From: Candidatus Kapaibacterium sp. | GTDB taxonomy: Bacteria; Bacteroidota; Ignavibacteria; Kapaibacteriales; UBA2268 | Reading direction: 5' to 3' | Assembly (NCBI GenBank): GCA_963665665.1 | Contig: OY762428.1 | Coordinates: 1,184,001-1,248,000 of the forward strand | DNA: 64,000 nucleotides | Shown here: piece after piece, positions 1 through 55,389 of the stretch | How the letters are laid out: every line of letters begins with the position of its first letter | Numbering within the stretch: position 1 is the stretch's first letter | Position numbers and translations under genes: made by a program | Notes under the pieces: model-generated | The model's input: the letters and a program-made list of their open reading frames with translations, nothing else | What the model was told of the DNA's origin: nothing | Databases searched by the model: none

Positions 1-739
1 TAATATCAGAAATGTCAAAATCAGCTTTTCTAAGAAGCTCAATAATTATTTTTTTGTCTAGAATGTTTTCATCCAGTCCGCCTGAAATATTAGGATATAG
101 TGGAGACGAAGGCTCAACAATTGGTTTAAGCAGGTTATTAAACCAATCTGATACATTCTCCAGTTGTTCAATATAAATATTTGTTTTCAGATAGCCGCCA
201 AGCACCGTATTATTAGTCAATGTATTGGTTTCGAGAACATTTTTAGCTTCCTTGCTAATACTTATCTTACTTCCAAAGGAAATTTTTGATATCATTTTTA
301 ATGTATCAGTTGTCCGGTTAAATACAATCGCCTTATTTGGATCATGGAAAAGAAGTGATTCTTTTACAATAGAAGTTTGATTAAATTCTAAATAATAGGT
401 GTATTTTATTCCCTTATGAATAAAATCTATACCTAATTTAGTGTTTGCCTTTGACGTTACCGCGTTAAACAGAAAAGGTTTGTAGTAAAGTAAATCATTT
501 TTCTTTTCAAGCGGTTGAGTTACAAGAACTCTAAGTAGTTCAATGGCCATTAAAATATTAGTTTTTCCCGATGCATTGGCCCCGTATATCAAGCCAAATT
601 TTAATATCCTGATCTTCTTTCCATTTCCGCATTTTAAAATATAATAATCTTCGAGATCTTTTGACCTGTCTGCTTCAAAAGACAAGACAATCTCTTCCTT
701 AATCGATTTGAAGTTCTCAACTCTAAAATTTAATATCAT
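1..739 (-). CDS. AAA_21/AbiEii-RloA-like ATPase, 3' end runs off the window
   Basis: Manual translation from ATG at 739 gives MILNFRVENFKSIKEEIVLSFEA...GLIYGANASGKTN (Walker A), a typical AAA_21 N-terminus. Absent from the ORF track because it is truncated. Confidence 0.85.
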   Translation of the reverse strand, partial: MILNFRVENFKSIKEEIVLSFEADRSKDLEDYYILKCGNGKKIRILKFGLIYGANASGKTNILMAIELLRVLVTQPLEKKNDLLYYKPFLFNAVTSKANTKLGIDFIHKGIKYTYYLEFNQTSIVKESLLFHDPNKAIVFNRTTDTLKMISKISFGSKISISKEAKNVLETNTLTNNTVLGGYLKTNIYIEQLENVSDWFNNLLKPIVEPSSPLYPNISGGLDENILDKKIIIELLRKADFDISDI

Positions 740-1615: not shown

Positions 1616-4600
1616 TTATCTGACTATAAATTTTGATACTTTGAAATTCTTTCCTGATGAGACCCTTATAAAATATATCCCGGGGGAAAGCTTTAAGTTC
1701 AGGTTTTTGGAATAAACCAAATCCAACTTTTTAAATTTACCCTTATCAATAATATATCCTTTTAAATCAGATATTTCATAATGAATATCACCAATAAACC
1801 CATTAGATAGTTTAAGCGCAAATTCACCATCATTAGGATTGGGAATTATTTCAATATCACTATTTGATTGAAGATTATCTTCAACACCCAAAATATAATC
1901 ATAAGCCTCGGATTCTGCATCACAACCATTTTCATCATAAATTACTACCGTAACCAGGCCACTACTTTGAGGCTGAAAGGTAGATGACTCCTCACCCTGA
2001 ACCGGCTCGCCGTCAAGATTCCACTGATATCCGGTTGCCGGAGTAGAATAAAGAACCCCGTCGGTTTCCGATATTTCTGGTTTATCCGGGTTGGGAACCA
2101 CCGTCACTTCCAGGCTGTCAATAGCTTTACAGCCATCTTTTGTCCAGGCCGAAAGAGTATATATACCTGCTTCAGTAATAAATCTTTTTTTATCAGTAGA
2201 GCCGTCCTCCCATTCGAAATCAATAAATCCAAGCCCGGATTGCAGCATAAGGGTATCTCCTTCACACAATGGATTATTGCCATTTGTCCGGATTTTTAAT
2301 TCAGGAACGCCATAAACAGTTACGTGGATAGTTTCTGACTTGGCAAAACAGTTTTTCTCGTTAGTGATCTTAACATTGTAAAGTCCGTTATCTTTTACAA
2401 CAATCGACCTTGTCGAGTCGCCTGTTGACCATTCAAATACCAGGTTATCAATATCATCGCGATCTGCAATATCAATTACCAGGCTGTCGCCTTCACAAAA
2501 ATCAGTTTCCCCGAGAAGTACAAGTTCCGGAGCATCAAGGTCGCAGTCAATAATCTCTGTTTCCCAAACTCCCCTGCCAAATGTAGCAGCTCTTAATTTT
2601 CCGGAACCATAGTGAATCTCAACTTCATTAACAACAACAGATGGCATACCATCGAAGAACGGTTCCCAATCCGAGGAATTATTATCCCTGTAAAACACTC
2701 CAATATCAGTACCTATATAAAGCCTGTCATCCGAGCTCTTCTCGTAAACAATAGAACTAACAGGAATATTCGGAAGTGTTCCTGTAATATTTATCCACTC
2801 GCTGCCATCATATTCAAAAACTTTATTTATTGCCGAGAACCCAGACAGGCAAACCCAAAGGCGCTCCGGATTCTCAGGATGAACTGCTATCTGAGAAATA
2901 TTGCCGGGAGGAGTAAACAATACTTCCCAGCTATTGCCACCATCACTTGTATAATATAGCCTTGAACTATTAGCTGCAAAAATATACTCAGAATTTGAAG
3001 GAGCTACAGCCAAAGCAGCCATAGTACGGCTCTGATTCAGATCGGATATCTTTTCCCAGTTATTCCCACGGTTTGTCGATTTCCAGACATTTTGAAAACC
3101 TGCGTAAATTATCCGGGGATCGGATGGGTCAATTAGAAATGGTGTAATCCATGCACCATTTTCATTAGTAATATTTCCGTTTAGAATCCCGGTTGCACTA
3201 TAACCGCCGTCAGTTGTTCTGGTAAGATTACCATAATACTGGGCATAATAAGCAATTTGCGAATTAGCCGGATCAACAGCACATTCCATACCGTCTCCAC
3301 CGACAATATGTGCCCATTCACCGTTGGAATATCTCTGCACACCATTGTCCTGTGTTCCGCAATAAATTATGCTTTCATCTGTAGCAGCATTGCCAAACCT
3401 GTATATCTGATGAATACTCATCCCGTCAGTAATATCTTCCCAATTTTTGGCATTATCGGAAGTTACATATACGCCGCCATCATTGGAATTGAAAAGTTCA
3501 TTAGTTCCCGGCCTGAATTCCAGGTAATGCTGATCAGCATGAACATAGGGCCTTTTGCTGCCCGTCCAATGAGTAACACTTTCCCAGCTGCCTCCGCCAT
3601 CCTGTGTTCTCCAGATATTTATTCCGCCAACATAAACAACATTATCTTCAGTTGGAGAAGCCGCAATGCAAAGATCATAGAACCCCTGCCCACCATCGTC
3701 TCCCCCGTTCCTGTTCCTGCCAAGAATATTGGGTTCAGTAGCTGTAACAGCCCAGGTATCACCGGCATCAGTAGAACGCACAAAAGAATGAAAACCCGAA
3801 TCATAAGAATTGGCTATAACAGCAAAAAATTTATCAGTGTCGAACGGACTTGAAGTCAACTCAATCCTTGAAGCTCCATTTGCCTGAAATATATGATCCC
3901 ATTCCACTCCTCCGTCAGTTGACTTAAAAATGGCACAATTACCTGCATTATAAGATACAGTGGCAACAATAATATTCGGGTCGTCGGTTTTGAATTCCAT
4001 ATCTTTAAAAAATCCGGCAGATGAGCGCTGCTCCCATGAATCACCACCATTTGTCGAACGGTAAACACCACCCTTACCCCCGGCAAGAATAATATCAGGA
4101 TCATCCGGGTTTATCAACAATCTTGCTATCAAATGGCCATCATCTATTTCTCTCTGCAAGCCTGTTAGCTTCCAGGTCTGTCCGCCGTCTGTCGATTTGA
4201 TAACACCAATGCTGTAGCCACGCGTCATGGAATACCCGTTTGCATCGCCTGTGGCAATATAAATTTCATCTGAATTATCAGGATTAATGGCAACATCAGT
4301 AATTCCCATAGCAAGAAAATCAGTTGTAGGCAGCAGTTCCCAATCCTGCCCGAGATTTGTTGAACGCCAGCAACCTCCGCCAGCCGAACCTGCATATAAA
4401 ATATTATTATTGTTAGGATCAAACCTTAACACATTTACCCTGCCAAGCCCGGAAGATTGATACCCCAATTTATTAACCGGCACATCAACAGGCCCGATCT
4501 CTTTCCAGTCAGCCACTGAGGATAATTTAGATTCTTTTCTTTTCTTCTGCATGTAAGAATCTATTTCCATCTTCACACTGAGCATATCAGGAAAAGAACC

Positions 4601-4959: not shown

Positions 4960-7900
4960 CTATTCTTTCACAAATCTTGTATTCAACAGTTTTGAACCTG
5001 ATTCCAGGATAATAATATAAACACCCGGCTCCAGATTCGATATATCAATTTTCTGCCTGATCATCTGAGAATTAGAATTGTACTCTCCGCTATAACAATT
5101 CTTGCCCAGAATATCAGTTATTCTGATCCGGTAATTATTAATACCATCAGCAAATGATTCAACAGTTATCTGTTCGGATGCCGGATTCGGCCTGACCACA
5201 AGGTAAGAACTAACTACTTCCTGATCATCTACCGAGGAAACGATTACCTCCATTGGTTCAGATACTGCCTTGCAGCCGTTTTCAGAACTTATTTCCACGT
5301 AATATATACCGTTTTCAATTACTGTATAATCACGGGATGTAGCTCCGCTGATTTTTTTGCCGTCTTTGTACCACTGATAGGCTTGTGCTTCTGAACTTGT
5401 AAGAGTAGTTTCATTCTTAGTAACAACCGGTTTGTCCGGAGCATCAAGCATTTCAACCATAATTGTATCAATTTTTATACAGCCGGCATCTGTTGTTCCT
5501 TTACAGCTATATTCTCCGGGCTGCCAAACTTTAATATTTCTATCTGTTTCACCTGTTGACCATAGAAACTCTTCAAAGGAAATACTGGCTGTAAGTGTGA
5601 TTGTATCACCCTGGCAGAATGGATTTCCGCCAAGTGCCCTTAGCTTTAAGTCCGGAACGGGATTAACCGTAACTGAAACTGTTTCCGTACTGGCTTTGCA
5701 GTTTTGATTATCTGTAACAGTACAATAATAATCTCCGGTTTCATCAACAACAATCGAATTAGTTGTTTCACCGTTATTCCATTCATAAGATTTATAAATA
5801 TCCGGAACGGATAAAGTTGTTGTTTCTCCTTCACATAAAGAGGTTTTTCCCTGAATTTCCACATCCGGTGCTTGAAGGCTGCAATTGGATACAGGAACTT
5901 CCCATAAGCCGCGGCCATAAGTTGCCGCCCTCATAACACCATTTGAATAAACAATATCAAGGTCGTTAATTACTACATTCGGAAGATTAACCCCATACAG
6001 TTCCCAATCTTCCATATTGTTATCTTTATAAAGAACACCAATATCAGTGCCGATATAAAGCCTGTCGGGTGTATCATTCTGATAGGCAATACAGTTTACC
6101 GGAACATTAGGTAATGATCCTGATACATTCACGAATTCAGTTCCGGTAAATTCATATACTTTTTCCCCATCTCCGTAACCGCCAAGAGTAAACCAGAAAT
6201 GCTCCGGTGATTTAGGATCAACAGCCACGGAGCTGAAAGGAAGCCCTGCTGTTATTAAAATACCCCAATTCCGGCCTCCGTCAGTTGTCCTGATCATTTT
6301 ATAACTCTCCCCATCCCAATTCATCAATACATATATAAAATCGGAGTTGGAAGGTGCTACAGAAATATGCCTGACAGTTGTGGGCAGACCAAAATTTGAT
6401 AACCTTTCGCCTGTTTCTCCCCTGTTTTCCAGTTTAAAAATATTCTGATATCCAATGTAAATAGTTTTTGTATCCTGAGGATCGAACACATAAGGTGTTA
6501 CCCAGGCACCCGCTTCATTAACAGCAGCCTGGTTTACCAATGGCAGAAAGCTGTCGCCACCGTCAGTGGAACGCCAGACAGAACCATAATAAAGCGATGT
6601 ATAAATATATCTTTCGTCTTCCTGATCTATCAGGCAGTCCATTCCGTCACCACCAAGGATGGTTTTCCACTGCCCGTTTTTCAGCATACTGGTTCCGTTA
6701 TCCTGTGAGCCGGCAACAATTAGATTCTTATTTTTTTCTGTTCCGGTTGATTTATAAAACTGAGTTATCTCAAGGCCGTCAGATAAATCAGACCACGAAG
6801 TCCCCCTATCCGTTGTTTTATGAATTCCACCGTCATTTCCACTATATAAATTTCCATTGCTGTCAAATACAAGGCAATGCTGATCGGCATGAATCCAGGG
6901 AGCGCCTACCCCCGTCCATGATGTAAGGATACTAAAACTAACGCCGCCGTTAACAGATTTCCAGAGGTTAACGCCGCCAATATATACTTCATTTTCATTA
7001 TATGGAGAAATTGCTATTGCAAGATCATAAATACCCTGGCCGCCTTCACCACCTCCGTCAATATCACTATGAAGGTAATTTGGTGTTTCAGCGCCGTCAG
7101 CAACAACAAACCAGTTCTTCCCGGCATCAGTTGACTTAAGCAGGGAATGGAATCCCTGATCGTTGTTGGCATTCAGCATATACACATAATTTGCATTAGC
7201 TTTTGTAACTGCTATTTCAGGTCGTCCAACACCAGGAAGCGGCAGAGGATCGCTTACGCTCGTATTACTCAAATTCACAGTTCTGAAAGTGTACTGGTTA
7301 TTCTCGATAAAACAGGCGAACAGAGTAGTAGGGTCGTCAACCTTGAATTCCATGTCACGGCAGATACCCTGAACATACTGATACCAGTTAGAGCCGCCGT
7401 CCGTTGTACCAAGAATACCGGCATTTGATGCAATAAAAACAATATTTGGATTCGAGGGGTGTACTAACATCCTGTTAATAAGAAGGCCGTTTGCCGGTTC
7501 AATATTCAAATTAGTCCTTGTCCAGCTTGTACCGCCGTTAGTAGTTTTCATTACTCCAACACTAAAACCTCGAACAACACCAAAAAATCCTCCTGCATCG
7601 GAATCGCCTGTGGCTGCGTAAACAATGTTTGAGTTATTAGGTGCAATTTGTATATCAGATATTCCTATAGACATTATACTGGTAAAAGGAAAAGTAAACC
7701 AGTCGGTTCCGCCGTTTGTTGATTTCCATACTCCGCCTGTTGCAGCGCCGGCCCATATTATATTATCATTATCAGGATCAAATGCAATAGTATTTATCCT
7801 CCCCATACCAGACTGTGGTGTCTGAGGTTTCAAAGCAGGCCTTCTTGTAGGGCCGAGCAATGTCCATTCAGGCTCGTCATCAAGCAGCTGATCCTTTTTC

Positions 7901-12025: not shown

Positions 12026-12784
12026 TTAAATTGATTTTATTGCATCCGATGGCAGCCAGCCGACGTCTCCGTTTGCAAGTTTTATTTTCAGCCATTCATT
12101 CACCTTATCAAGAACTTTTACTTTAGCGCCCTCGTGCAGGATGAAAAGATCAGTACTATTCTCATCGGGAGAGCTCTTCACGTAAACGTTAACTGCAAAT
12201 ACAACGCCGCCACTGTTATCATTTTCAATCTGATTCGACTGATATCCCAGGTATGTTGAAATCCCGAAAAGCACTATCATCATAAAAGCTCCGGCAAAAA
12301 GTATTTTTTTAATCGCAGGCGACCAGATAAACATGAACCCGACGAGCATAAGGAATGCAAGCCATATAAATATAACAGCCGAAACGGCCCATCCTGTTGA
12401 AGACATCATACCAATAAATGATTCAAGCCACTCGGTAAGGAAGAATTTCGGTACGGGTGGAATTTTATCAATAGTACGAAGCATTGCCACATTTCTGTTA
12501 AAATCAATATCCTCATCTCCGGGAGATAGTTTTGCCGCTTTTTCGAAATATAAAATTGTCTCCGGAATTTTCCTCAGCCTGTAATAACAATTACCCATGT
12601 TATAATACAGATCAGCGGATTCTATCCCGTTTTTTTCAAGTTGGCTGTATAATTCCAGAGCCTGGGAATATTTGCCATCACTATAAAGATCATTAGCTTT
12701 TTTGAATGTATCAGTATTGCTTTCCGCTAAAAGCGAAACAGTAGCAAGTATTGTTATCAATATTATTATCAATGTGTTTCTCAT
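12026..12784 (-). CDS. batE: BatE (TPR + transmembrane + SH3)
   Basis: TPR (LYYNMGNCYY), two TM helices, C-terminal SH3 LFILHEGAKV...GWL; bat gene order. Confidence 0.88.
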   Translation of the reverse strand: MRNTLIIILITILATVSLLAESNTDTFKKANDLYSDGKYSQALELYSQLEKNGIESADLYYNMGNCYYRLRKIPETILYFEKAAKLSPGDEDIDFNRNVAMLRTIDKIPPVPKFFLTEWLESFIGMMSSTGWAVSAVIFIWLAFLMLVGFMFIWSPAIKKILFAGAFMMIVLFGISTYLGYQSNQIENDNSGGVVFAVNVYVKSSPDENSTDLFILHEGAKVKVLDKVNEWLKIKLANGDVGWLPSDAIKSI

Positions 12785-14589
12785 TTTAACCAGCCCTCCA
12801 TGTCAGTTATCAATGAAGCCGCGTTATCATAGGTTTTCTGCATAGCGCCGCTCTCACCGGAAGGTGAATAGCGAGCAAACTCGCATTCGTCAATTGTTTC
12901 CATATACAGTTCTGCTTTTTCGAGTGATACTTTGCGTTTATGCAATTCCTCCAGGGCAACATCTTTATTCAGATCGGCAAATTGAATTCCAAGTTTATCA
13001 CTTAGATATCCCCAGAGAGCTTTACTTGTCTCTTCATAAAATTTATCCCTGTCGTTTGCCGTCAGATGTTTCTTCGCGGCTGACAATCTTGCTTTCGCAA
13101 CTTTTGTAGCTTTTTTATTTCTTAAAAGGCTTTGATTCCTATTTTCTTCCTCTCGTTTTTTCCTGAAGAAAAACAGGAGAAAAAACAATGGAACAGGAAG
13201 CAGGGTGAGAATAATAAAGCCGAAAGATCCGAAAAATGATGGTTCCGATTTTGCTAAATCTGATGCATCAGTTTTAATAAACCTGATATCTTTACCAAGG
13301 TATTTCACATTTTCTTTCCGCACCCCTTCAACAACAGCCGATGAAGTACCGCCTTTACCTTTTGTAACTTTAATAGTAAATGGTTCGGAAGTGAGTGTAA
13401 CATACTTCTTTTTATCCAGGTCGAAATAAGTAAATTCTACAGGTTCAATATCGAACTCACCCGGATTGCGGGGAATCAGTAAGTATTCAAAAGTTTTATT
13501 ACCCTTGAAGCCGCCTGCAGAAACAGAAAGATTATCGGATTCCTTGGGTTCGTAGGATTCAATATCCGGTGGTAATTCAACTGCTATAGGGTCAATCAAT
13601 TTGATATTACCACTGCCGCTGATTCGGATTTTCAGGCTAACAGGCTCATTGGATTTTGTTTCGGTTTTGTCCAGCCAGGCTTTCATTTCAAGCCGGCCAA
13701 CACCGCCTGCAAAACTTGCAGGAGGATTATCAGGAAGTGGTTTAACCGTTATCGAACCTGCCCTGGAACGCACGGTATGATCAAAATTCTTATAATTCCT
13801 TGATCCGAAGAATGATTCAAACGGATCGCGAGACCTGCGGCCACCGTTTACCTGAAGCTGAGCCACGGCATTAAGTTCAACAGGATCGATAGACAATTTT
13901 CCAACCTGTTGCGGCAGAAGCATAACTTTCTGAATAGTAACAGCCTCATAACGTACTCCGTCAAGTACTTCAGCCCGCCAGTTCTGCTTTGCCCCCAGGT
14001 CCTGAGCCCAGAATCCGTTGAAAGCAGGCATTTTAGGAAGATCAAGATCTGCAAGACGCAAATCGGGATGCTTGTATAATGTGTAAGTTACCATAACAGG
14101 TTCGCCAAGATACACGGTCTTTTTACTTTGGCTGAGCCTGACAAAAAGATTATCTGCAATTATTTTCCTTGCCTGGCTGGTTTGATCCTTTTCCTGCTGC
14201 TGTTTTGCTATCTGAGCCTTCGTCGGGTCTGTTACCCGGATAGTTATTGAATTCGATCTGACAGTTTTACCATCAACTTTTACCGTAGCAGGTTTTATTG
14301 TATAAGTTCCCTTTTTGGGTGCCTGCAGGACATAAGTAAATGATTTCGACTGGCTCATCCTGCCGTTTATAATACTCGTACTCGAGGATTGGCTGGGCCC
14401 CATCAATACTTTGAAAGGCGAAAAGCGTGGCGGGCTGAAATTTGAGCCGTTCCCTTCAATATTAAAAGTCAATTGGAATCTTTCACCCTGCGATACCGGA
14501 TTCTTGCTGACCGATGCCGTGAATTTCGCGGCAAATAAATTGGTCAGAGCCAGTGTAAATATTACTAATATTAATGATAATCTTTTCAT
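12781..14589 (-). CDS. batD: BatD
   Basis: GPSQSSSTSIINGR, FNGFWAQDL, LIPRNPGEF, C-terminal TM and CEFARYSP. Confidence 0.92.
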   Translation of the reverse strand: MKRLSLILVIFTLALTNLFAAKFTASVSKNPVSQGERFQLTFNIEGNGSNFSPPRFSPFKVLMGPSQSSSTSIINGRMSQSKSFTYVLQAPKKGTYTIKPATVKVDGKTVRSNSITIRVTDPTKAQIAKQQQEKDQTSQARKIIADNLFVRLSQSKKTVYLGEPVMVTYTLYKHPDLRLADLDLPKMPAFNGFWAQDLGAKQNWRAEVLDGVRYEAVTIQKVMLLPQQVGKLSIDPVELNAVAQLQVNGGRRSRDPFESFFGSRNYKNFDHTVRSRAGSITVKPLPDNPPASFAGGVGRLEMKAWLDKTETKSNEPVSLKIRISGSGNIKLIDPIAVELPPDIESYEPKESDNLSVSAGGFKGNKTFEYLLIPRNPGEFDIEPVEFTYFDLDKKKYVTLTSEPFTIKVTKGKGGTSSAVVEGVRKENVKYLGKDIRFIKTDASDLAKSEPSFFGSFGFIILTLLPVPLFFLLFFFRKKREEENRNQSLLRNKKATKVAKARLSAAKKHLTANDRDKFYEETSKALWGYLSDKLGIQFADLNKDVALEELHKRKVSLEKAELYMETIDECEFARYSPSGESGAMQKTYDNAASLITDMEGWLK

Positions 14590-14624
14590 AATACCGATTC
14601 AATATTGATTGACAATAGTTGAAA

Positions 14625-15437
14625 TTACCAGTTCTTTTCAAGTTTTCTTTTATTACCTTTTTTCTTTTGCAGTTTTTTCAGAACATTTTTCTCATCCCTT
14701 TGCAATGCCTGGAGAATCCTGCGCGCTTCCTCGTCAGAGATTTTTTGATCTTTTCTTTCTCCCTGCTGAGCCTGCTGCTGGTCTTTCTTGTCTCCCTGCT
14801 GCTGTTGCTGCTGCTGCTGCTCTTTTTTATCCTGGTTTTGCTTGTCCTGATTTTGCTGCTGCTGGTCCTGTTTATCTTTATTCTGGTCTTTTTTATCCTT
14901 ATTCTGCTGATCTTTGTTCTGTTGGTCTTTGTTTTGATCTTTATTCTGGTCTTTTTTGTCCTGATCTTTCTGATCCTTATTCTGCTGTTGCTGCTGTTGT
15001 TGTCTCATTTTTTCAAGGGCATACTGAAGGTTATATTTCGTATCCATATCTTTGGGATTAAGTTTCAATGCATTTTTATATGCATCTATACTTTCCTTGT
15101 ATTTCTGCGCCTGTAAAAAAGAGTTCCCAAGATTATGAAATACTTTTGCTTTAGTATCATCATCAAGGTTGAGATTTGATACATTGGCAAAATGTTTTGC
15201 AGCATCCTCGTAATTTCCCTGCTTATAAATAGCGTCGCCCAGGTTGAAGGAACCTTTAGTATTCAACGGGTCTTCCTCCAAAGCCTTTCGGTATTTTATT
15301 TCCGCTTCATTGTATTTTTTTTCTTTATACTGCTTGTTGCCTTCGCTGATCTGGCTTTTTACTTCGTCAGCTTCGGCATAAGAAAACAGAATAAAAATTG
15401 ATAATAACACAGGAACAAATATTTTCATTTTACTCAT
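14625..15437 (-). CDS. batC: BatC (TPR protein with Q/D/K-rich linker)
   Basis: TPRs, KYNLQYA, low-complexity linker, C-terminal EKNW. Start set at ATG 15437, which follows aaggagg. Confidence 0.88.
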   Translation of the reverse strand: MSKMKIFVPVLLSIFILFSYAEADEVKSQISEGNKQYKEKKYNEAEIKYRKALEEDPLNTKGSFNLGDAIYKQGNYEDAAKHFANVSNLNLDDDTKAKVFHNLGNSFLQAQKYKESIDAYKNALKLNPKDMDTKYNLQYALEKMRQQQQQQQNKDQKDQDKKDQNKDQNKDQQNKDQQNKDKKDQNKDKQDQQQQNQDKQNQDKKEQQQQQQQQGDKKDQQQAQQGERKDQKISDEEARRILQALQRDEKNVLKKLQKKKGNKRKLEKNW

Positions 15438-16494
15438 TTTCTTCCCTCCTTTGATTACCACCTGCAAATACATTTAGTGCTGTCAGGTATTTGTTTCTCT
15501 TGTCGGAAACAACAAATTCAAAAACAATAAATACCAGCGCTGCCGCTATCGGATATTGGAATCGGTCTTCATATTCGGTAAACATTTTGGACCCGTATTC
15601 CTTCTTTTCCATTTTATCAATATCCTGAAGCAGTTTTTCCAGGTCCGGATCAGGGCCGTCGGCGCTGATAAACCTTCCGTTTCCGGCTGCTGCAACCTGC
15701 TGAAGCATTCCTGGATCAAGTTTAGTCAGAATGGTCTCCCCGTATTTATCTTTTCTGAATCCAACCCTGTTACCGCCTTTGTAAATCGGAATTGGCGCGC
15801 CACCGGCCGAACCCATTCCTATTGTATGAATAACTACTCCCTGCTCGGCGGCTTTTTTGGCAGTACCAAGGGCATCATCTTCATGATTCTCGCCGTCAGT
15901 AATAATAATCAGGACTTTATGCTTCTCATCATCCTTCTCGAAAGCGCTTAAAGCCGTTTCGATAGCACCACCAAGGGCTGTTCCCTGTGTTTCTATCATA
16001 TCCGTATCGATTGTTGACAGCAGAAGCTTTGCGGCACTGTAATCAGTTGTTAAAGGAAGCTGCATGAAGGATGTTCCAGCAAAAGCCACAATACCAATAC
16101 GGTCATTTCTTAACTTATCAATTAGCCTTGAAATTGATTTCTTTGCCCTTTCAAGCCTGCTTGGCTTTATGTCTTCGGCTTCCATACTATTTGATACGTC
16201 AAGGGCAATTACTACATCAACACCCTCTCTTTTTACTTCCTCCATCTTGGAACCTATCTGCGGATTGGCAATACCGAGAACGATAAATAATATCGTAATC
16301 ATAAGAAGAACAAACCTGAACCAGGGCTTGAATCGGGATACATCCGGCTGGAGCCGCCTTATAAGCCTTGTTTCACCATACTCTTCCATCAGTTCCCGCC
16401 TTCTGTGGCGAACAAAAATAAACAACAGAATGAAAAAGGGTATTAATGCCAATCCATAAAGGAAAACATCGTTTTCAAATCTGAATATGTCCAT
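15430..16494 (-). CDS. batB: BatB (VWA domain membrane protein)
   Basis: MIDAS DVSNSM, PSRLERAK, PLTTD, ITDGENHE, EDRFQYP. Confidence 0.9.
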   Translation of the reverse strand: MDIFRFENDVFLYGLALIPFFILLFIFVRHRRRELMEEYGETRLIRRLQPDVSRFKPWFRFVLLMITILFIVLGIANPQIGSKMEEVKREGVDVVIALDVSNSMEAEDIKPSRLERAKKSISRLIDKLRNDRIGIVAFAGTSFMQLPLTTDYSAAKLLLSTIDTDMIETQGTALGGAIETALSAFEKDDEKHKVLIIITDGENHEDDALGTAKKAAEQGVVIHTIGMGSAGGAPIPIYKGGNRVGFRKDKYGETILTKLDPGMLQQVAAAGNGRFISADGPDPDLEKLLQDIDKMEKKEYGSKMFTEYEDRFQYPIAAALVFIVFEFVVSDKRNKYLTALNVFAGGNQRREENE

Positions 16495-16654: not shown

Positions 16655-16684
16655 TGTAACCAAACAGGATTTTCAAACGACATC
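16655..16684 (+). promoter_or_regulatory. Putative ECF-type autoregulatory promoter TGTAAC-N17-CGAC
   Basis: tgtaac at 16655-16660, 17-nt spacer, cgacatc from 16678; directly upstream of the ECF gene. Confidence 0.55.
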
Positions 16685-16714
16685 CTGATGTATTTGGAAT
16701 TAAGAGAATTGAAA

Positions 16715-17266
16715 ATGGATAATCCGGATTATACAAAGCAATTTTTTGACTTACTTGAACCGGTTTACAGAAAACTGGAAAGGTTCGCCCTGGCAATTTC
16801 GCGGGATGAACATCAGGCAAAGGACATTGTAAGCGAAACTGTGCTTACAGCTCATGCCGGCTTCTCGAAATTGAGAAACAAACAAGCCTTCCTCAGTTTT
16901 CTGTTTACAATAGCAAGGCGGGCTGTCGTGAATGAATTTAGAAAAAACAGGCCTGACAGGTTTGACTATGAAATCGAACCCGACAACTTTGCTAAAGATT
17001 CAATGCTTCCTGACGTAAGGACTGATATCACCCTGCTGAGAGAGGCAATTAATAAGTTGAAAACTAAGGACAGGGAAGCAATTGTTCTTTATGAAATAAG
17101 CGGTTTTTCCGTGAAAGAACTTGCTGACATTCAGAATTGCTCGCTAACAGCAGCAAAAGTGAGGCTGTTCAGGGCAAGAAAAAAACTGGCCGGAATTCTC
17201 GGTGTTCCGGATATTAAAAAGAATGAAACAATAACCTTACAGGCTGGCGCCGGAGGTAAAATATGA
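16715..17266 (+). CDS. ECF RNA polymerase sigma-70 factor
   Basis: Region 2 (AKDIVSETVL, FLFTIAR) and region 4 (REAIVLYEISGFS...KVRLFRARKKL). Start at 16715 preferred; 16688 is possible. Confidence 0.92.
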   Translation: MDNPDYTKQFFDLLEPVYRKLERFALAISRDEHQAKDIVSETVLTAHAGFSKLRNKQAFLSFLFTIARRAVVNEFRKNRPDRFDYEIEPDNFAKDSMLPDVRTDITLLREAINKLKTKDREAIVLYEISGFSVKELADIQNCSLTAAKVRLFRARKKLAGILGVPDIKKNETITLQAGAGGKI

Positions 17267-19227
17267 AAAACAAAAAAAATCTACAGACATATTTGAATAA
17301 ATTGAATAGTGAAATAGACAACAAAAGTCTTTTCACGCAAGATGAACTCCATGGATTAATTAGTGAAAACAGCGGTACCGCGACAAAAAGCAATAGAACT
17401 TTTAAAACAGGAAAATTTAAAATGATAACAAATTCGGGAATTTTTAAAATGTTAAGTATATCAGCTTTAATTGTCGCAGCAGCATCCTTCCTGACTTTCA
17501 ATGGTTTCTTTGGCTCGGGAAGCAACAATGAAAACACGGAAACCGGACCAACGGTAAAAATTCCGATAATCAAATTGTCGGAAAGCGAATTAAAAAAAAT
17601 TGGAATCACAAAAATTGAAAATGGCTACAGCTTTTTATCCCAAAGTTGCGCGGACGGCGCTGAAAGCTATGAGAAGGAAATGCTTATAAAGGGATACCCG
17701 TCCAATGACGATGAAGATATATTTCGTTCAACTGAAATACTGACCTTCACGAAAAAAGAATACTTTGATATGAGTGGCGGTATGATAGACTATGCTGGCT
17801 GGGATTTAAGAAAGCCATCTCCGATAATGCCCTTGGGGCTGAATTTTACTTATCATACTTCTGGCGGATGTGGTTCCGGCAGTTCATGCTTTGGATTTGC
17901 ACCTCTTATTGAGGAAAGAAGAGATTTCTTCAGAGAGATCGGTGATTTCTTTACCATTAAATTTATTAAACCAAAAATTAATCCCGAAGAAATTGAATTT
18001 CTTACTATAAATACAGAGAAAAATCCATACGCAGCTCAGATAATACCTGTATTTATTCCATTCTATGACGAAGACGGAAACAGGGGCGATTGCATACTGT
18101 GGTATCTGCCAACGCCGGAATTCGTTGATATGCTGCCCGAAAGATATTCTTCATATATTAGAGAAAATTTGAACATCATATCTTATCTTGAAGATACCGG
18201 CAGTGGCGACTTGGAGATAAAACCCGAAATGAACATGAATTACCAAAATCAAAAGGAAATTGCAGGTATTAAATATATTGAACTGAGTGAAAATGAATTA
18301 CTGCAATTGAATATCAGGTATAAAGACAATTCATGGCTGATACCGGCAAGACATCAGGAAGTTAAAAAATCCGAAACTGATGGGGCACTGCTTTCGGAAC
18401 TGAAAAAATCAGGTATTTCAATCAGCAGGGCAGTCCTGAATTTTGATGAAGTAATTTCTGCCGGCTTAAAAGAAAACAATACGGAATATATTTCATTTGA
18501 TAATAGTAAAACCAAAATTTTCCCTCTTGTAATATCATCATTAGGAAAGTTTTGGAACTACAGAAAAGATATCGACTACTGGGAACCGGCTTCGAGGCAG
18601 TCTGTAATTACCCTTCTTGACGAATATAAATCAGACGATGAAGAAATAAAGGCTGTAAATTCAGTAATTAAGAACAATGCGCTTAATTCAATCGCCGGAA
18701 TTGAAAATTTAATCAATGTCAGGATTTTAAAAAACTATTCTTCACCTGATGATAAAAAGCACCCTGTAATTCATGAAATAAACCTCTGGTATGAGATCAC
18801 TCCCGAATTCATCAACGCATTGCCGGACCGATACAAAGTACCATTATCAAAAGAGTTCAATATAATGAAGAAAATTGAGCAGGGAACTATCAAACCGGAA
18901 AAAGCCTGCGATGAATTGAATAATGATACTAGCTATATGAACGTATGCGAGACAGCAGCAGCAAAAGAATTCAAGCTCCTTGTTTCCCCTAACCCGGCTA
19001 CGGATAAAATTACAATAGGATTTCATCTTCCGGAAGCCTCAGGTATAAGTCTGGGATTGTACGAAATTACCGGTAATAAAATTATGGACTTCATTCCATT
19101 CGATAATATGAGTGCCGGCATTCATGATAGAAACTTCAACCTGAATGGTTTGAGTCAGGGAGTTTACCTGCTGATTCTAAAACTGGAAAACGGCAAAACT
19201 GCAATGAAAAAACTGATCATACAGTAA
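17263..19227 (+). CDS. Putative membrane-anchored anti-sigma factor with duplicated periplasmic domain and T9SS CTD
   Basis: ATGA overlap with the ECF stop and GGAGGT RBS. About 60 aa hydrophilic N-terminus, one TM, an internal repeat, then VSPNPA...QGVYLL...KKLIIQ. Confidence 0.75.
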   Translation: MKNKKNLQTYLNKLNSEIDNKSLFTQDELHGLISENSGTATKSNRTFKTGKFKMITNSGIFKMLSISALIVAAASFLTFNGFFGSGSNNENTETGPTVKIPIIKLSESELKKIGITKIENGYSFLSQSCADGAESYEKEMLIKGYPSNDDEDIFRSTEILTFTKKEYFDMSGGMIDYAGWDLRKPSPIMPLGLNFTYHTSGGCGSGSSCFGFAPLIEERRDFFREIGDFFTIKFIKPKINPEEIEFLTINTEKNPYAAQIIPVFIPFYDEDGNRGDCILWYLPTPEFVDMLPERYSSYIRENLNIISYLEDTGSGDLEIKPEMNMNYQNQKEIAGIKYIELSENELLQLNIRYKDNSWLIPARHQEVKKSETDGALLSELKKSGISISRAVLNFDEVISAGLKENNTEYISFDNSKTKIFPLVISSLGKFWNYRKDIDYWEPASRQSVITLLDEYKSDDEEIKAVNSVIKNNALNSIAGIENLINVRILKNYSSPDDKKHPVIHEINLWYEITPEFINALPDRYKVPLSKEFNIMKKIEQGTIKPEKACDELNNDTSYMNVCETAAAKEFKLLVSPNPATDKITIGFHLPEASGISLGLYEITGNKIMDFIPFDNMSAGIHDRNFNLNGLSQGVYLLILKLENGKTAMKKLIIQ

Positions 19228-19260
19228 AAAAACTGTTTCTTATAAAAAAATCCAAAGATT

Positions 19261-19291
19261 ACCCGGGATAATTTATTCCGGGTTTTCTTTT
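19261..19291 (+). terminator. Intrinsic terminator
   Basis: acccgggataatttattccgggt followed by tttcttt. Confidence 0.7.
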
Positions 19292-19402
19292 GAGTTTAAT
19301 GCATTCGCAGAATAAAATTGTTTTTTCTGTAAATTCTGATTATTTTTAAGTACGGATTCTGTTTAATCTGAATCCTTATAGTAGTAATCAAAAAGGTGAA
19401 TC

Positions 19403-21886
19403 ATGTCAGGTATAAAAAACAATCCGGAAAAAATTGATATGACTAAAAATATTGTTCCTGTTGCAAAGCTTAAATGGAAATGTCCGGCTTCAAAATTAAA
19501 ATTAAAATCAACTGAAGAAATTGAACCGCTTGATAAAATCGTTGGCCAGCCGCGAGCTATTAATGCATTGAAATTAGGCTCGGAATTATTTTCGAAAGGT
19601 TATAATATTTTTGTTTCCGGTATATCAGGTACCGGCAGGCTTACCACTGTAAAAAAACTATTGCAAAAGGTATCCACACATAACCCCGACCTGTTTGACT
19701 ACTGCTACGTGTATAATTTCAGCGCACCGGACCACCCGAGATTATTAAAACTAAAGAAAGGCGAGGCCTGTAAATTCAGAACCGCTGTTGAAGAAGCCGT
19801 TACATTTACCAAAAGACGCCTTCCCAAACTTTTTGAGGATGAAAATTTCAGAAGGAACAGGCAAAAAATAATTGAAGATTACCAGGAAAAAGAAAGGCAA
19901 ATATTAAATAAGTTCGATAAAAAAATTGAGCCTTTCGGATTTATAAGGGGCCAGATTGAAAATGAGAACGGAACCACACAGCCTGAAGTATTTCCGATTA
20001 TAAACGAAAAACCTATTCAAATCGAAGATATTGACCAGTTTGTTGAATCGGGTGATATTGATATTAACATTGCAAATGAAAAAAGAGAATTATACAGGAA
20101 ATTTCACAACGAAATATTTGATATTGCCCGCAAAGGTATGAAACTGATGCAGGAATTCCGCCGGGCAATATCCAAAAGTGATAAAAAAGCTGCATCTGTG
20201 GAAGTTGAAGCCGCCTTTGACGAAATACCCGATAATTTTAATTACCCTGAAATAGAGATATTTATTAATGAAGTAAAGGATCATATTCTTGATAATCTAA
20301 GCGTTTTTGTACCTTCAACCAACCCTTTCCCGCAGCTGTCGGATAACGGCAAAACCAATGTTGAAGATCATTTACACCTGTTCAATGTTAATATTGTTCT
20401 CGACAACTCATCTACATCTGCCGCACCGGTTGTGATTGAAACAACCCCATCATATAATAACTTGTTTGGAACTATCGAAAGAATTCTCGATTCACGGGGA
20501 TTCTGGAGGTCGGATTTCACAAAGATAAAAGCAGGTTCGATTCTAAAAGCAGATCAGGGCTACCTGATTGTCAGCGCTGGCGACCTGTTTTCGGAGCCCG
20601 GCGTATGGCAGGCGTTAAAAAGAGTGCTTTTATATGATAAATTGGATGTACAGCCACTTGATTCGTATTTCAATTTATCGCAGACTCATTTGAAACCGGA
20701 ACCAATAAAAGTAAATGTTAAAGTTATCATTATAGGCGGGCAAACGCTTTATAGGATGCTCTACCTGCATGAGAAAGGATTTAAGAAAATTTTCAAAATC
20801 AATGCTCAATTTGATTATGAAACCAGGCGAACTGATGACATGATTGAGCATATCAGCCGGTTTATCGCTAAAATATGCAGGGATGATAATCTTTGTCCGT
20901 TTGCCCGTGACGGAGTTGCATCAATTGTAGAGTGGGCTATTGCTCATGCCGGCAGCCAGGAAAGAATTACCCTGAAATTCTCAGACATTGCAGATATTAT
21001 AAGGGAATCAGCCTATGCATTCAAAAATTCAGGAGATAAGGATTTTATTACTTCCATTCATGTAGACAGAGCAATTAAAGAAAGACGCTTCCGGAACGAC
21101 CTGGTTGACGAAAAGGTTAAGCACCACATTCTAAACGGCAATACTTTTATTGATACAGAAGGCAGCAGGATAGGACAGATTAACGGCCTTACAGTTTATG
21201 ATACCGGCCTGCTGTCATTTGGCAAACCTGCCAGGATAACCTCCACAATTTCTGCAGGAAATGCGGGAATTGTTAATATCGAACGCGAAGCTGATATGAG
21301 CGGAACAATACACAACAAAGGTGTTCTGATTATCACAGGGCTGCTTCAGGAACGATTTGCTTATAAACATCCCTTGTCATTAACAGCATCAATTGCTTTT
21401 GAACAGTCTTATGGAGGTATTGACGGAGACAGTGCCTCGGCTGCAGAGATTTATGTCCTGCTCTCAGCCCTGACAAATACTCCGATCAAGCAGGACCTTG
21501 CAATTACAGGTTCGGTTAACCAAAAGGGAGACATTCAGCCTATTGGCGGAGTAAATGAGAAAATCACCGGGTTCTTCGAGATTTGCAGGGACAGAGGCCT
21601 TACAGGAAAGCAGGGAGTAATAATTCCATCTCAAAATGTGAAAGACCTGATGCTGACAGACGATATCCTAAACGCAGCAAAGAAAAAGAAATTTTTTATC
21701 TATTCAATCGAAAAAATTGAAGACGGAGTACCACTGCTAATGGGAATAGAAGCCGGAATAAGAGGCAATGACGGTTCTTATCCCAAACAAAGCCTGTTTG
21801 GGCTGGCAGAAAGAAAACTTGAAGAGTATTATAAGCTATCGCGAAATATTAAGGACAAAAATTCGAAAAAGAAAAAAAACAGTTAA
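19403..21886 (+). CDS. LonC-type (AAA_32) S16 protease
   Basis: IVGQPRA; degenerate Walker A GISGTGRLT; catalytic dyad region DGDSASAAE and IGGVNEKI. Confidence 0.9.
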   Translation: MSGIKNNPEKIDMTKNIVPVAKLKWKCPASKLKLKSTEEIEPLDKIVGQPRAINALKLGSELFSKGYNIFVSGISGTGRLTTVKKLLQKVSTHNPDLFDYCYVYNFSAPDHPRLLKLKKGEACKFRTAVEEAVTFTKRRLPKLFEDENFRRNRQKIIEDYQEKERQILNKFDKKIEPFGFIRGQIENENGTTQPEVFPIINEKPIQIEDIDQFVESGDIDINIANEKRELYRKFHNEIFDIARKGMKLMQEFRRAISKSDKKAASVEVEAAFDEIPDNFNYPEIEIFINEVKDHILDNLSVFVPSTNPFPQLSDNGKTNVEDHLHLFNVNIVLDNSSTSAAPVVIETTPSYNNLFGTIERILDSRGFWRSDFTKIKAGSILKADQGYLIVSAGDLFSEPGVWQALKRVLLYDKLDVQPLDSYFNLSQTHLKPEPIKVNVKVIIIGGQTLYRMLYLHEKGFKKIFKINAQFDYETRRTDDMIEHISRFIAKICRDDNLCPFARDGVASIVEWAIAHAGSQERITLKFSDIADIIRESAYAFKNSGDKDFITSIHVDRAIKERRFRNDLVDEKVKHHILNGNTFIDTEGSRIGQINGLTVYDTGLLSFGKPARITSTISAGNAGIVNIEREADMSGTIHNKGVLIITGLLQERFAYKHPLSLTASIAFEQSYGGIDGDSASAAEIYVLLSALTNTPIKQDLAITGSVNQKGDIQPIGGVNEKITGFFEICRDRGLTGKQGVIIPSQNVKDLMLTDDILNAAKKKKFFIYSIEKIEDGVPLLMGIEAGIRGNDGSYPKQSLFGLAERKLEEYYKLSRNIKDKNSKKKKNS

Positions 21887-53205: not shown

Positions 53206-53254
53206 ATTACTTCTCCTTTTATCAAACCGTGTTAGTAAAAAATTATTAATCATA

Positions 53255-55234: not shown

Positions 55235-55389
55235 ATACTCCCTCCGGTTTAGAAACATTTGTTTCAAGGAAACAATTCAAGTTTACAATATAAAAAGATT
55301 TTTTCTAATTAGGTAAAATATTTGGAACAATCATTCGGAATGTATTGTTTATTACATGGAAATGAAAATTCCTTGAAATCATATTAACC

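Follow-up and report, generated by a model that had tools for sequence, protein, structure and literature searches.

Within the window, by which we mean the whole 64,000-nucleotide stretch of Candidatus Kapaibacterium DNA that was analysed, a gene for an ECF sigma factor is followed by a gene for a large partner protein. Coordinates of the features at this locus are collected in Table 1. Translational coupling joins the two genes into a single unit, flanked by an ECF-type promoter and a terminator, and all the elements of the self-contained unit described in an earlier sequence-only reading (promoter, ATGA overlap, GGAGGT and terminator) are present. The GGAGGT motif stands five bases ahead of the partner ATG, and the same ATGA overlap occurs in one of the paralogous pairs described below (L010).

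Table 1. Features of the ECF-partner locus, in positions of the window. Residue numbers (aa) for the head, helix, core and sorting domains are those of the partner protein.
Feature	Position	Strand	Details
ECF-type promoter	16656..16684	+	GTAACC 16656-16661, 17-base spacer, GACATC 16679-16684; read from sequence
ECF sigma factor gene	16688..17266	+	192 aa counted from first ATG
Translational coupling	17252..17266	+	GGAGGT 17252-17257; ATGA start/stop overlap 17263-17266
Partner gene	17263..19227	+	654 aa
Cytoplasmic head (predicted)	17263..17433	+	aa 1-57; helices aa 5-18 and 26-34 (AF2); proposed anti-sigma domain
Single TM helix (predicted)	17437..17496	+	aa ~59-78, N-in/C-out; hydropathy, charge bias, AF2 helix 60-78
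Core domain copy 1	17545..18198	+	aa 95-312, alpha/beta; jackhmmer E 2.6e-77; pLDDT mostly 80-95 (full model)
Core domain copy 2	18259..18972	+	aa 333-540, on to ~570; jackhmmer E 3.2e-28
Type A T9SS C-terminal sorting domain	18979..19224	+	aa 573-654; PF18962, TIGR04183
Intrinsic terminator	19261..19293	+	10-pair stem 19261-19283, 5 GC pairs, loop of 3, T-rich tail

By its domain content, the product of the first gene is an ECF (group 4) sigma-70 factor with regions 2 and 4 only. Pfam places Sigma70_r2 (PF04542, E 1.8e-11) at residues 23-88 and Sigma70_r4_2 (PF08281, E 1.2e-14) at residues 116-167, and the protein scores 70.9 bits against TIGR02937 (cut-off 42.9). Its score against NF058625 (sigma_PG0214), 74.3 bits, lies below the cut-off of 130. 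Because only about 4 bases separate the end of the promoter from the first ATG and the alignment with paralogous ECFs begins at M10, the true start is probably M10 at position 16715, giving a protein of 183 residues. Similar promoters (GTAACC, GTGACT or GGAACT, a 17-base spacer and an ACxTAC-like element) lie upstream of four paralogous ECF genes and of most orthologous ones, and the promoter in the window is probably autoregulated by its own ECF. When the genome was scanned with a crude matrix built from nine sites, only the ECF operons' own promoters were clear among the intergenic matches.

The partner terminates in what is, by profile matches and motif conservation, a genuine type A T9SS C-terminal domain (CTD). 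It scores 40.1 bits against Por_Secre_tail (PF18962, residues 575-653, cut-off 27) and 30 bits against TIGR04183 (cut-off 23), so that the CTD recognised in the sequence-only reading exceeds the cut-offs of both models. These are the partner's only family matches at E ≤ 1; neither Pfam nor NCBIfam matches residues 1-570 at that threshold. The modelled CTD is a beta-sandwich resembling PorU (6za2_B; Z 10.2, rmsd 2.1, 85 residues aligned), the mirolase CTD (8qb1_A; Z 10.0, rmsd 2.1, 77 residues aligned, 29% identity) and the CTD of NucA in a T9SS complex (8glk_D; Z 9.1, 27% identity). Macroglobulin and FN3-type domains also match, at Z 8-10, and unrelated sandwiches tie with the solved CTDs within 1 Z. 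Residues P576, N577, P578, G604, G619, G633 and Y635 are each kept in at least 90% of 123 family sequences. The genome encodes SprA (956.6 bits), PorU (853.4 bits) and, adjoining PorU, a PorV-like gene whose matches of 164.4 and 79.5 bits fall below the cut-off of 250. Of the 374 candidates for TIGR04183 in the genome 150 were scored, and at least 150 matches exceed the cut-off. T9SS cargo normally carries cleaved signal peptides. Another ECF operon in the window consists of an ECF gene, a separate anti-sigma gene and then a gene for a CTD cargo protein.

At its other end the partner is predicted to be a single-pass membrane protein oriented N-in/C-out. It has one hydrophobic segment, the best 19-residue window of which begins at residue 59, and charge is biased across it, with 10 Lys and Arg residues in the head versus 2 in the 30 residues past the segment. 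Together with the AF2 helix at residues 60-78, this agrees with the hydrophilic head of about 60 residues and single TM helix originally proposed. The motif L-D-K-Y-F-x-x-A-K/R ... P-L-F-S-x-D-E-L-R-S-I-L-E is conserved in 138 heads. Measured by mean top-residue frequency across 123 family members, the head is conserved to the same degree as the CTD: head residues 4-35 average 0.35 and the CTD 0.40, and the linkers lie at 0.11-0.19. No Pfam anti-sigma family (zf-HC2, RskA and others) matches the head at E ≤ 1. A search of PDB sequences with the head profile gave no significant match (best E 0.017), and an entry described as a 'putative ECF-type sigma factor negative effector' appeared at a non-significant E of 0.037.

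The large soluble region that follows the TM helix, as the sequence-only reading had it, comprises two copies of a 215-residue core domain detected with jackhmmer. Across the family the ectodomain consists of one or two copies of this domain and then the CTD. Copy 1 terminates in the motif LWYxPTxEFxxxLPxRY. Copy 2 is the family-defining module and has a conserved cysteine pair, C549 and C562, the former invariant in the 123 sequences, in at least 90% of which W509, L520, P521 and E531 are also kept; it additionally contains disordered inserts at residues 366-412 and 431-477. We found no known fold for the core domain among the predicted structures compared, which is distinct from claiming a new one. 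A Foldseek search with the whole partner model returned the CTD sandwich only and nothing at E ≤ 0.001, a weaker model of the core domain by itself (pLDDT 66.3) gave no fold match in the PDB (best Z 3.8), and the ESM Atlas gave no usable match for residues 95-312. Scattered similarities to PAS, GAF, longin and other sensor-domain folds (Z 2.4-3.5) were not trusted. In most family members the tether between the TM helix and the core is long, with a median of 96 residues (interquartile range 69-141; at least 60 residues in 84% of 137 members) and 73% polar composition. In the window's partner only 16 residues separate the TM helix from the first folded domain, and any spanning of the envelope by this protein would need to draw on its two domains and the disordered inserts, which speaks against a Dma-like tether here.

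The genome contains five paralogous ECF-partner pairs, including that of the window. The other four partner genes each directly follow an ECF gene, with gaps of -4 to +51 nt, and none of the five units contains a further anti-sigma gene. The genome has five NF033710 matches (PorV/PorP-like barrels), all of them away from the pairs. In 11 other genomes an ECF gene is directly upstream of the partner at 16 of 17 loci, and these ECFs match the profile of the paralogous ECFs at E 1e-34 to 1e-66. The seventeenth locus is cut by a contig start and frame-broken, leaving a same-clade ECF upstream at 16 of 16 evaluable loci. ECF and partner are therefore paired more than chance would allow (5/5 in this genome and 16/17 elsewhere), and the homologs are linked to ECF genes, as the earlier reading requires.

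Relatives of the partner are numerous and sparsely annotated. A word-indexed homolog search returned a single protein, 96% identical and recorded from M54 (601 residues), and a search for related loci with the partner sequence alone gave no relative. A profile from which the CTD had been left out, run against 1.84 billion representatives, matched 500 metagenomic clusters at E ≤ 1e-3; the count falls to 234 at a threshold of 1e-10 and to 23 at 1e-30. Among the best 150 of the 500 clusters, 149 have a CTD at the extreme C-terminus and 118 have a hydrophobic segment that begins at residue 30 or later, after a hydrophilic head. With a core-domain profile and a sample of the phylum, the family was found in 11 of 22 other genomes of the window's order and in 0 of 378 elsewhere. 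Members are named in databases only as 'T9SS type A sorting domain-containing protein'.

In a tree of the genome's 30 ECFs, the five paired ECFs group with a sixth in a clade supported at 100/100. We ran an HMM built from the 138 head sequences on the 30 proteins encoded downstream of these ECFs, and it matched exactly the six partners of the clade, five of them at E 2.8e-15 to 1.3e-9 and the sixth, P0151, at E 9.5e-5. This specificity bears out the expectation that the N-terminal head would be conserved in homologs. Among the other 24 ECF partners, longer heads of the classical kind prevail, with a TM helix near residues 90-100. On these profile matches, head type tracks the ECF clade and not the ectodomain. 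P0151 consists of the head, a TM helix, a tether or linker and a barrel-like C-terminus, a layout like that of the Dma proteins, and a word-indexed homolog search with it returned only P0151 itself. ECFs in other families that score 106-156 bits against the ECF profile have short-headed partners or, by the adjacency rule applied, no adjacent open reading frame, and no barrel was seen among them.

Anti-sigma factors hold ECFs inactive by sitting between sigma regions 2 and 4. We modelled the complex of the ECF with the head, and three runs gave ipSAE values of 0.83, 0.84 and 0.84, against 0.02 for the best of 3 controls; 58 of 80 solved complexes and 2 of 110 mismatched pairs attain the mark applied to this score. 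The runs share at least 80% of their contacts, with a partner pLDDT of 66-67. Head residues 4-37 contact ECF residues 16-56 and 110-177, so that a two-helix head of about 35 conserved residues is predicted to be wedged between sigma regions 2 and 4; the closest modelled contacts involve head residues 10, 14, 18 and 23 and ECF residues 117, 137, 35 and 45. Since sigma/anti-sigma complexes have already been solved, the score may partly reflect likeness to known structures. The model favours the anti-sigma role that had been assigned to the head from its gene order. We give a probability of roughly 60% to the reading that the locus encodes an ECF/anti-sigma pair whose single-pass anti-sigma factor bears, in addition, the tag of a T9SS substrate. 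The partner is best read as a single-pass anti-sigma factor that carries a T9SS tag in place of the Dma barrel.

The same gene could encode a shorter protein. Met residues at positions 54 and 63 precede the hydrophobic segment, and a start at either would yield ordinary T9SS cargo under ECF control, with a cleaved signal peptide and with the 53 upstream codons lying outside the protein. The 96%-identical homolog is indeed recorded from M54, and the window's other ECF operon, in which a CTD cargo gene accompanies a separate anti-sigma gene, provides a local precedent for cargo of this kind. We regard this reading as highly improbable, because the ATGA overlap and GGAGGT belong to the upstream start, an in-frame Met close to the hydrophobic segment is missing from 59 of 138 family members, and the head is conserved family-wide. 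The uncharged stretch of the segment has a family median of 23 residues, which is TM length; the five units lack any other anti-sigma gene; and the head is modelled as bound to the ECF (0.84 versus 0.02 for the best control). Hydropathy, charge bias, the conserved head and the 23-residue median point to an uncleaved anchor, and the choice of the upstream start over M54 or M63 in the sequence-only reading is upheld.

If the partner is an anti-sigma factor, its tag can be read in more than one way. The degree of conservation of the CTD suggests that it is still read by the T9SS machinery, and we infer that the partner is coupled to secretion. It is rather unlikely, in our estimate, that the partner is a genuine anti-sigma factor whose CTD has become a periplasmic Ig-like sensor or interaction module, which never enters the T9SS and leaves release of the sigma factor to ordinary ligand- or stress-induced proteolysis. 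Such a derivation would suit a beta-sandwich as common as this one, to which macroglobulin and FN3-type domains are similar as well, and would remove the difficulty of squaring an inner-membrane tether with export; PorA of Porphyromonas gingivalis is a precedent for a CTD protein that acts in signalling (PMC7712824). Against it, the domain passes the curated cut-off of either type A CTD model, its motifs are retained in at least 90% of 123 sequences, its position at the extreme C-terminus holds in 149 of the best 150 clusters, and the highest identities among the fold matches (27-29%) are to real T9SS CTDs.

For the preferred reading, a tagged anti-sigma factor, the following course of events can be envisaged. 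After Sec insertion, the CTD would be recognised in the periplasm by the T9SS (PorV/SprA). The ectodomain might then be made to reach or cross the outer membrane with the head still held in the inner membrane, producing an envelope-spanning tether like Dma1. Alternatively, engagement by the T9SS might make the juxtamembrane region accessible to proteolysis, first site-1 and then site-2, whereupon the ectodomain would leave as cargo, the head would be degraded and the sigma factor would be freed. The freed sigma factor would transcribe at least its own operon, and the five paralogs would constitute five channels with different ectodomains. Unless it is cleaved, an inner-membrane-anchored polypeptide ought to block a T9SS translocon. 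We put forward, as a tentative possibility, a T9SS-coupled checkpoint. When the translocon captures the tag, the juxtamembrane region would be pulled or exposed and intramembrane proteolysis would follow, with export of the ectodomain and release of the sigma factor. The five channels would then read whether the T9SS is working or saturated.

A simpler use of the same parts would be feedback. The head would bind the ECF, but the surface or secreted product would merely limit its own synthesis, each copy holding one sigma factor until it is processed and exported, with no external signal involved. That the ECF operons' own promoters are the only sites to stand out genome-wide would fit, as would an ectodomain that is large, duplicated and devoid of a known sensor fold. 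The promoter scan is crude, however, and five paralogous pairs with divergent ectodomains on a common head look more like parallel sensors; the sixth member of the clade, moreover, has a barrel and not a cargo-like ectodomain. We consider feedback of this kind quite improbable.

The proposed system shares features with several known ones. RseA/RpoE and RsiW/SigW are pairs in which a single-pass anti-sigma factor is removed by regulated intramembrane proteolysis. As in these, the partner gene is downstream of, and probably co-transcribed with, the sigma factor gene, and its product has a cytoplasmic N-terminal domain, here modelled between sigma regions 2 and 4, followed by one TM helix and an extracytoplasmic domain. 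It differs in that the head has only two helices and about 35 conserved residues, with no zf-HC2 or RskA-type match, whereas most of the other 24 ECF partners in the genome have heads of about 90-100 residues, and in that its ectodomain terminates in a secretion tag. With type A CTD cargo such as the gingipains, mirolase and NucA, the partner shares a C-terminal beta-sandwich that scores above cut-off and has the fold of solved CTDs, as well as a genome with SprA, PorU and a PorV-like gene. Unlike such cargo, it has no short N-terminal signal peptide but a conserved 50-residue head and a TM-length anchor, and its gene stands, within an ECF operon, in the usual place of an anti-sigma gene. FlgM offers the concept of anti-sigma removal tied to a secretion machine: release of sigma-28 is coupled to flagellar type III export, and FlgM itself is exported. 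The sigma-binding head of the partner, in contrast, would be cytoplasmic and barred from passage through the T9SS, and proteolysis or mechanical coupling would therefore be needed.

The closest parallel is with the Dma family. Dma1 and Reo extend across both membranes, and an N-terminal region keeps ECF21 sigma factors bound (PMC10927553). Dma proteins (PMC10927553; bioRxiv 10.1101/2025.09.27.678952) and the partner have in common a gene that adjoins its ECF, a short N-terminal sigma-binding region (modelled in the partner), one TM helix, a long polar tether (in most members of the partner's family) and a C-terminal module directed at the outer membrane. The Dma module is an eight-stranded OMP_b-brl_2 barrel targeted by BAM, whereas the partner has a type A CTD after one or two novel 215-residue domains and would be targeted by the T9SS; the likeness between the heads of Dma1 and Reo and that of the partner is one of layout. 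The parallel to Dma and Reo drawn at the outset is strengthened by the Dma-like P0151, which is paired with the sixth ECF of the same clade. PorA is likewise a CTD-bearing protein that feeds T9SS or cell-surface information to an ECF pathway (PorXY-SigP), but it is a surface protein acting via a two-component system, lacks a cytoplasmic domain and does not serve as an anti-sigma factor (PMC7712824). The literature searched, which extended up to but not into the per-group anti-sigma listings of PMC7826278, gave no description of an anti-sigma factor with a T9SS CTD, and the earlier statement that no described example was known stands for that literature.

How bacteria with a T9SS match transcription of their hundreds of surface and secreted proteins to secretion capacity is poorly understood, and the known link between the T9SS and transcription, PorXY-SigP with PorA, is indirect. 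The 500 clusters make up a large unannotated family, which brings with it a new periplasmic domain and a short putative anti-sigma head that is likewise new; both could be entered in family databases. [quoted passage not shown] If the checkpoint is also true, it would carry the FlgM/sigma-28 logic over to the Gram-negative outer membrane and would add to the Dma barrel a second way of connecting the cell surface directly with transcription.

All elements of the two-gene unit described in the sequence-only reading are present in the DNA: an ECF sigma factor gene, an ATGA overlap preceded by GGAGGT, the gene for the 654-aa partner (the proposed anti-sigma factor), and a terminator. Coordinates are collected in the table. 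The ECF protein contains Pfam domains Sigma70_r2 (aa 23-88) and Sigma70_r4_2 (aa 116-167) and scores 70.9 bits against TIGR02937 (cut-off 42.9). The promoter-like GTAACC-N17-GACATC ends about 4 bases 5' of the first ATG of the ECF ORF (16688), and the alignment of paralogous ECFs starts at M10; the true start is therefore probably 16715, making the first-ATG annotation 9 codons too long. A promoter of the GTAACC-N17-ACxTAC type is common to paralogous and orthologous ECF genes, and no targets for it were definable beyond the ECF operons. The upstream flank (12781-16494, minus strand) encodes several membrane, TPR and VWA-like proteins in a row, presumably akin to a Bat-type aerotolerance operon, and an 827-aa Lon-like protease ORF lies 3' of the terminator (19403-21886, plus strand); both were judged by eye from their translations.

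Features of the ECF-partner unit, the partner protein and other relevant loci
Feature	Position	Strand	Basis or remark
ECF promoter-like site	GTAACC 16656-16661, 17-base spacer, GACATC 16679-16684	+	upstream of ECF gene
ECF sigma factor gene	16688-17266	+	ORF, 192 aa
GGAGGT before partner start	17252-17257	+	sequence
ATGA start/stop overlap of ECF and partner genes	17263-17266	+	sequence
Partner gene	17263-19227	+	ORF, 654 aa
Terminator hairpin, 10 pairs, then T run	19261-19293	+	sequence
Partner: head helices	aa 5-18, 26-34		AlphaFold2 model
Partner: TM helix	aa 60-78		AlphaFold2 model
Partner: well-modelled alpha/beta domain	aa 97-310		AlphaFold2 model
Partner: second region, with disordered inserts	aa 335-570		AlphaFold2 model
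Partner: beta-sandwich	aa 573-654		AlphaFold2 model
Type A CTD match	1619-1849	-	39.4 bits
Type A CTD match	4963-5190	-	41.4 bits
Type A CTD match	53276-53497	-	38.7 bits
Second operon: type A T9SS CTD protein, 670 aa	53255-55267	-	PF18962 35.9 bits
Second operon: classical long-headed anti-sigma-like protein	55390-56781	-	zf-HC2 18.6 bits, weak, below cut-off; TM near aa 89
Second operon: ECF	56771-57334	-	187 aa
Sixth clade ECF and P0151 unit (L050/L079)	G000:C1:2132319-2134896	-	outside window

The only family match of the partner at E<=1 in Pfam and NCBIfam is a type A T9SS sorting domain (CTD) at aa 574-654, and aa 1-570 have none. The CTD scores 30 bits against TIGR04183 (cut-off 23) and 40.1 bits against PF18962 (cut-off 27). 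Hydropathy analysis bears out the single TM that had been proposed, with one hydrophobic segment whose best 19-aa window is at aa 59. The N-terminus should be cytoplasmic, since the head (aa 1-57) contains 10 Lys and Arg residues versus 2 in the 30 residues after the segment. An AlphaFold2 model of the whole partner, built from a 123-row alignment, has a mean pLDDT of 75.3 and a pTM of 0.57. The top structural matches of its C-terminal sandwich are solved T9SS CTDs, led by PorU (6za2_B, Z 10.2), mirolase (8qb1_A, Z 10.0, 29% identity) and the NucA CTD in a T9SS complex (8glk_D, Z 9.1, 27% identity), with unrelated Ig-like sandwiches falling within one Z unit of these matches. Iterative profile searches show that the 215-aa periplasmic core domain is present twice in the partner, at aa 95-312 and at aa 333-540. 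Across 137 family members it occurs once in 69, twice in 58 and three times in 10. Foldseek found no known fold for this domain using the whole-partner model, a model of the domain alone (pLDDT 66.3) gave a best structural match of Z 3.8, and the ESM Atlas returned no match. The first core domain is separated from the TM by a polar tether whose median length over the 137 members is 96 aa (IQR 69-141); it reaches 60 aa or more in 84% of them and is only 16 aa in the window's partner.

The host genome is a single contig of 5.46 Mb with 38.6% G+C. It encodes four further proteins whose similarity to the partner (E 4e-24 to 2e-12) begins at query aa 478-505, well ahead of the CTD; each lies directly 3' of an ECF gene with a gap of -4, +13, +49 or +51 nt. 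All five partners are built alike: the head and a single hydrophobic segment (aa 50-60) lead into a variable polar stretch, after which a conserved module closing with LWYxPTxEFxxALPxRY precedes a Cys pair and the CTD. A profile of these five without the CTD, scored against 1.84 billion cluster representatives, matched 500 proteins at E<=1e-3, of which 234 reach <=1e-10 and 23 reach <=1e-30. Among the best 150 of the 500, a small CTD model detected the domain in 149, and the hydrophobic segment starts at aa 30 or later in 118. Of the remaining 32, 26 lack a strong segment in their first 150 aa and 6 have one that starts before aa 30; many of them are clearly truncated or annotated with an internal Met as the start. 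The only family member with a source name comes from a Chlorobi/Chlorobiota MAG and is called 'T9SS type A sorting domain-containing protein'. Run over 401 genomes sampled evenly across the phylum, with at most three candidates scored per genome, the profile matched 12 including the host. All 12 belong to the host's order (11 of the 22 sampled there besides the host, against 0 of 378 in the rest of the sample). Homologs are linked to ECF genes, as the proposal implied: among 17 loci from those 11 genomes, 16 have an ECF gene immediately upstream, which the profile of the paralogous ECFs matches at E 1e-34 to 1e-66. The 17th, L036, is no counterexample because the contig begins inside the N-terminal part of the protein and a frame break is present. 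Its two frames (L036:3-2170, plus strand) split near 950-971, inside the LWYxPT-type motif, reflecting a frameshift, pseudogene or assembly error.

The head is conserved and specific to one group of sigma factors. An alignment of 138 heads, delimited from 171 family sequences, shows two conserved blocks, approximately L-D-K-Y-F-x-x-A-K/R and P-L-F-S-x-D-E-L-R-S-I-L-E. Over aa 4-35 the most common residue at each position has a mean frequency of 0.35 among the 123 aligned sequences (occupancy 93%), compared with 0.40 for the CTD, 0.42 for the C-terminal core motif and 0.11-0.19 for linkers. The genome has 30 ECF genes above cut-off, and a head HMM matches exactly six of the 30 proteins encoded downstream: the five CTD partners (2.8e-15 to 1.3e-9) and P0151 (9.5e-5), the partner of a sixth ECF. 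A maximum-likelihood tree of all 30 unites the six cognate ECFs in a single clade, supported at 100/100 and set on a long branch. Most of the other 24 precede proteins of the classical anti-sigma layout, which have a longer head and a TM near aa 90-100. Were translation to begin at M54 or M63, the N-terminus could resemble a signal peptide and the head would lie outside the protein; P0001, a 96%-identical database homolog of 601 aa, is indeed recorded from the M54 equivalent. However, the coupling signals sit at the upstream start, 17263, the head is conserved and ECF-specific, and 59 of the 138 members lack any in-frame Met within 12 residues of the hydrophobic segment. At a median of 23 aa (IQR 21-25), the uncharged stretch is as long as a TM and unlike an h-region. 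These observations point to an uncleaved TM preceded by a cytoplasmic head. As the P0001 record illustrates, gene callers can overlook this head, making such proteins resemble ordinary signal-peptide cargo.

We modelled the ECF protein (alignment of 19 sequences) together with partner residues 1-57 (alignment of 123). Three runs gave ipSAE values of 0.83, 0.84 and 0.84, and the best of three controls gave 0.02. Of 80 solved complexes 58 reach the tool's mark, as do 2 of 110 mismatched pairs, a calibration that holds only roughly here because we supplied our own alignments. Contact agreement between runs was at least 80%, with a partner pLDDT of 66-67. In the model, head residues 4-37 contact ECF residues 16-56 (region 2) and 110-177 (region 4), a sandwiched arrangement that is that of ECF/anti-sigma complexes. 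Since such complexes have already been solved, the pass may partly reflect likeness to known structures. The model supports binding of the head to the ECF sigma factor.

In P0151 (418 aa), a family-type head and a TM are followed by a polar linker that leads into a C-terminal region of about 170 aa, whose last residue is aromatic. Free-standing proteins of 200-250 aa that match this region are encoded in 28 of 200 other genomes from the phylum. Its nearest ESM Atlas clusters consist of Bacteroidota proteins, 29-50% of which carry OMP_b-brl_2 (score 0.93), a lead only. The P0151 gene is followed by a free-standing 248-aa paralog of its C-terminal domain. [quoted passage not shown] P0151 has the same layout with a predicted barrel, and its unit is, judged by sequence, a Dma-like unit in a non-Bacteroidia lineage. 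The suggested parallel with Dma/Reo thus gains substance, since the same head type occurs on Dma-like P0151 with an ECF of the same clade. At L084, a locus from the same order (2079-3326, plus strand), a clade ECF (183 bits) is followed by a protein of 416 aa whose head is short, whose TM lies at aa 43 and whose Por_Secre_tail match scores 34.6 bits. This protein lacks the 215-aa core domain, so the head and CTD design is not tied to one ectodomain. Three more distant genomes encode short-headed ECF partners with other ectodomains, and the host's six partners carry a core domain and CTD in five cases and a predicted barrel in one. In this distribution the head tracks the sigma clade and the outer module varies.

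The genome encodes a T9SS core, with SprA (956.6 bits), PorU (853.4 bits) and a PorV-like gene adjoining PorU. At least 150 TIGR04183 matches exceed the cut-off (150 scored of 374 candidates), including the three type A CTD matches tabulated for the window, so the five ECF-coupled CTD proteins are a small special subset of a large cargo set. About 25 kb from the ECF-partner pair, a 385-aa ORF resembles PorV weakly (44603-45139, minus strand), scoring 56.6 bits against NF033710, whose cut-off of 250 is far higher. A second ECF operon in the window (49987-57334, minus strand), which also holds a 1088-aa ORF, has a layout unlike that of the pair: its predicted anti-sigma factor and CTD cargo are separate genes.

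In silico, then, a single-pass protein fills the anti-sigma position of an ECF operon, carrying a clade-specific, predicted sigma-binding head and a C-terminus predicted to be a bona fide T9SS tag. A full-text literature search found no published description of an anti-sigma factor with a T9SS CTD; the T9SS is not mentioned in the main text of either Dma paper (PMC10927553; 10.1101/2025.09.27.678952), and the main text of the ECF reclassification paper cites it for SigP only. Dma-like and single-pass anti-sigma factors are themselves a known kind, and what is new here is the secretion tag and new ectodomain. The tag would be read by the T9SS in the periplasm. The partner might then bridge the envelope, as Dma1 does via its barrel. 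Alternatively, T9SS engagement could lead to cleavage near the membrane, export of the ectodomain, site-2 proteolysis and release of the sigma factor, and this cleavage and export route seems more likely for a translocon substrate. The freed sigma factor would at least autoregulate through its GTAACC-N17-ACxTAC-type promoter.
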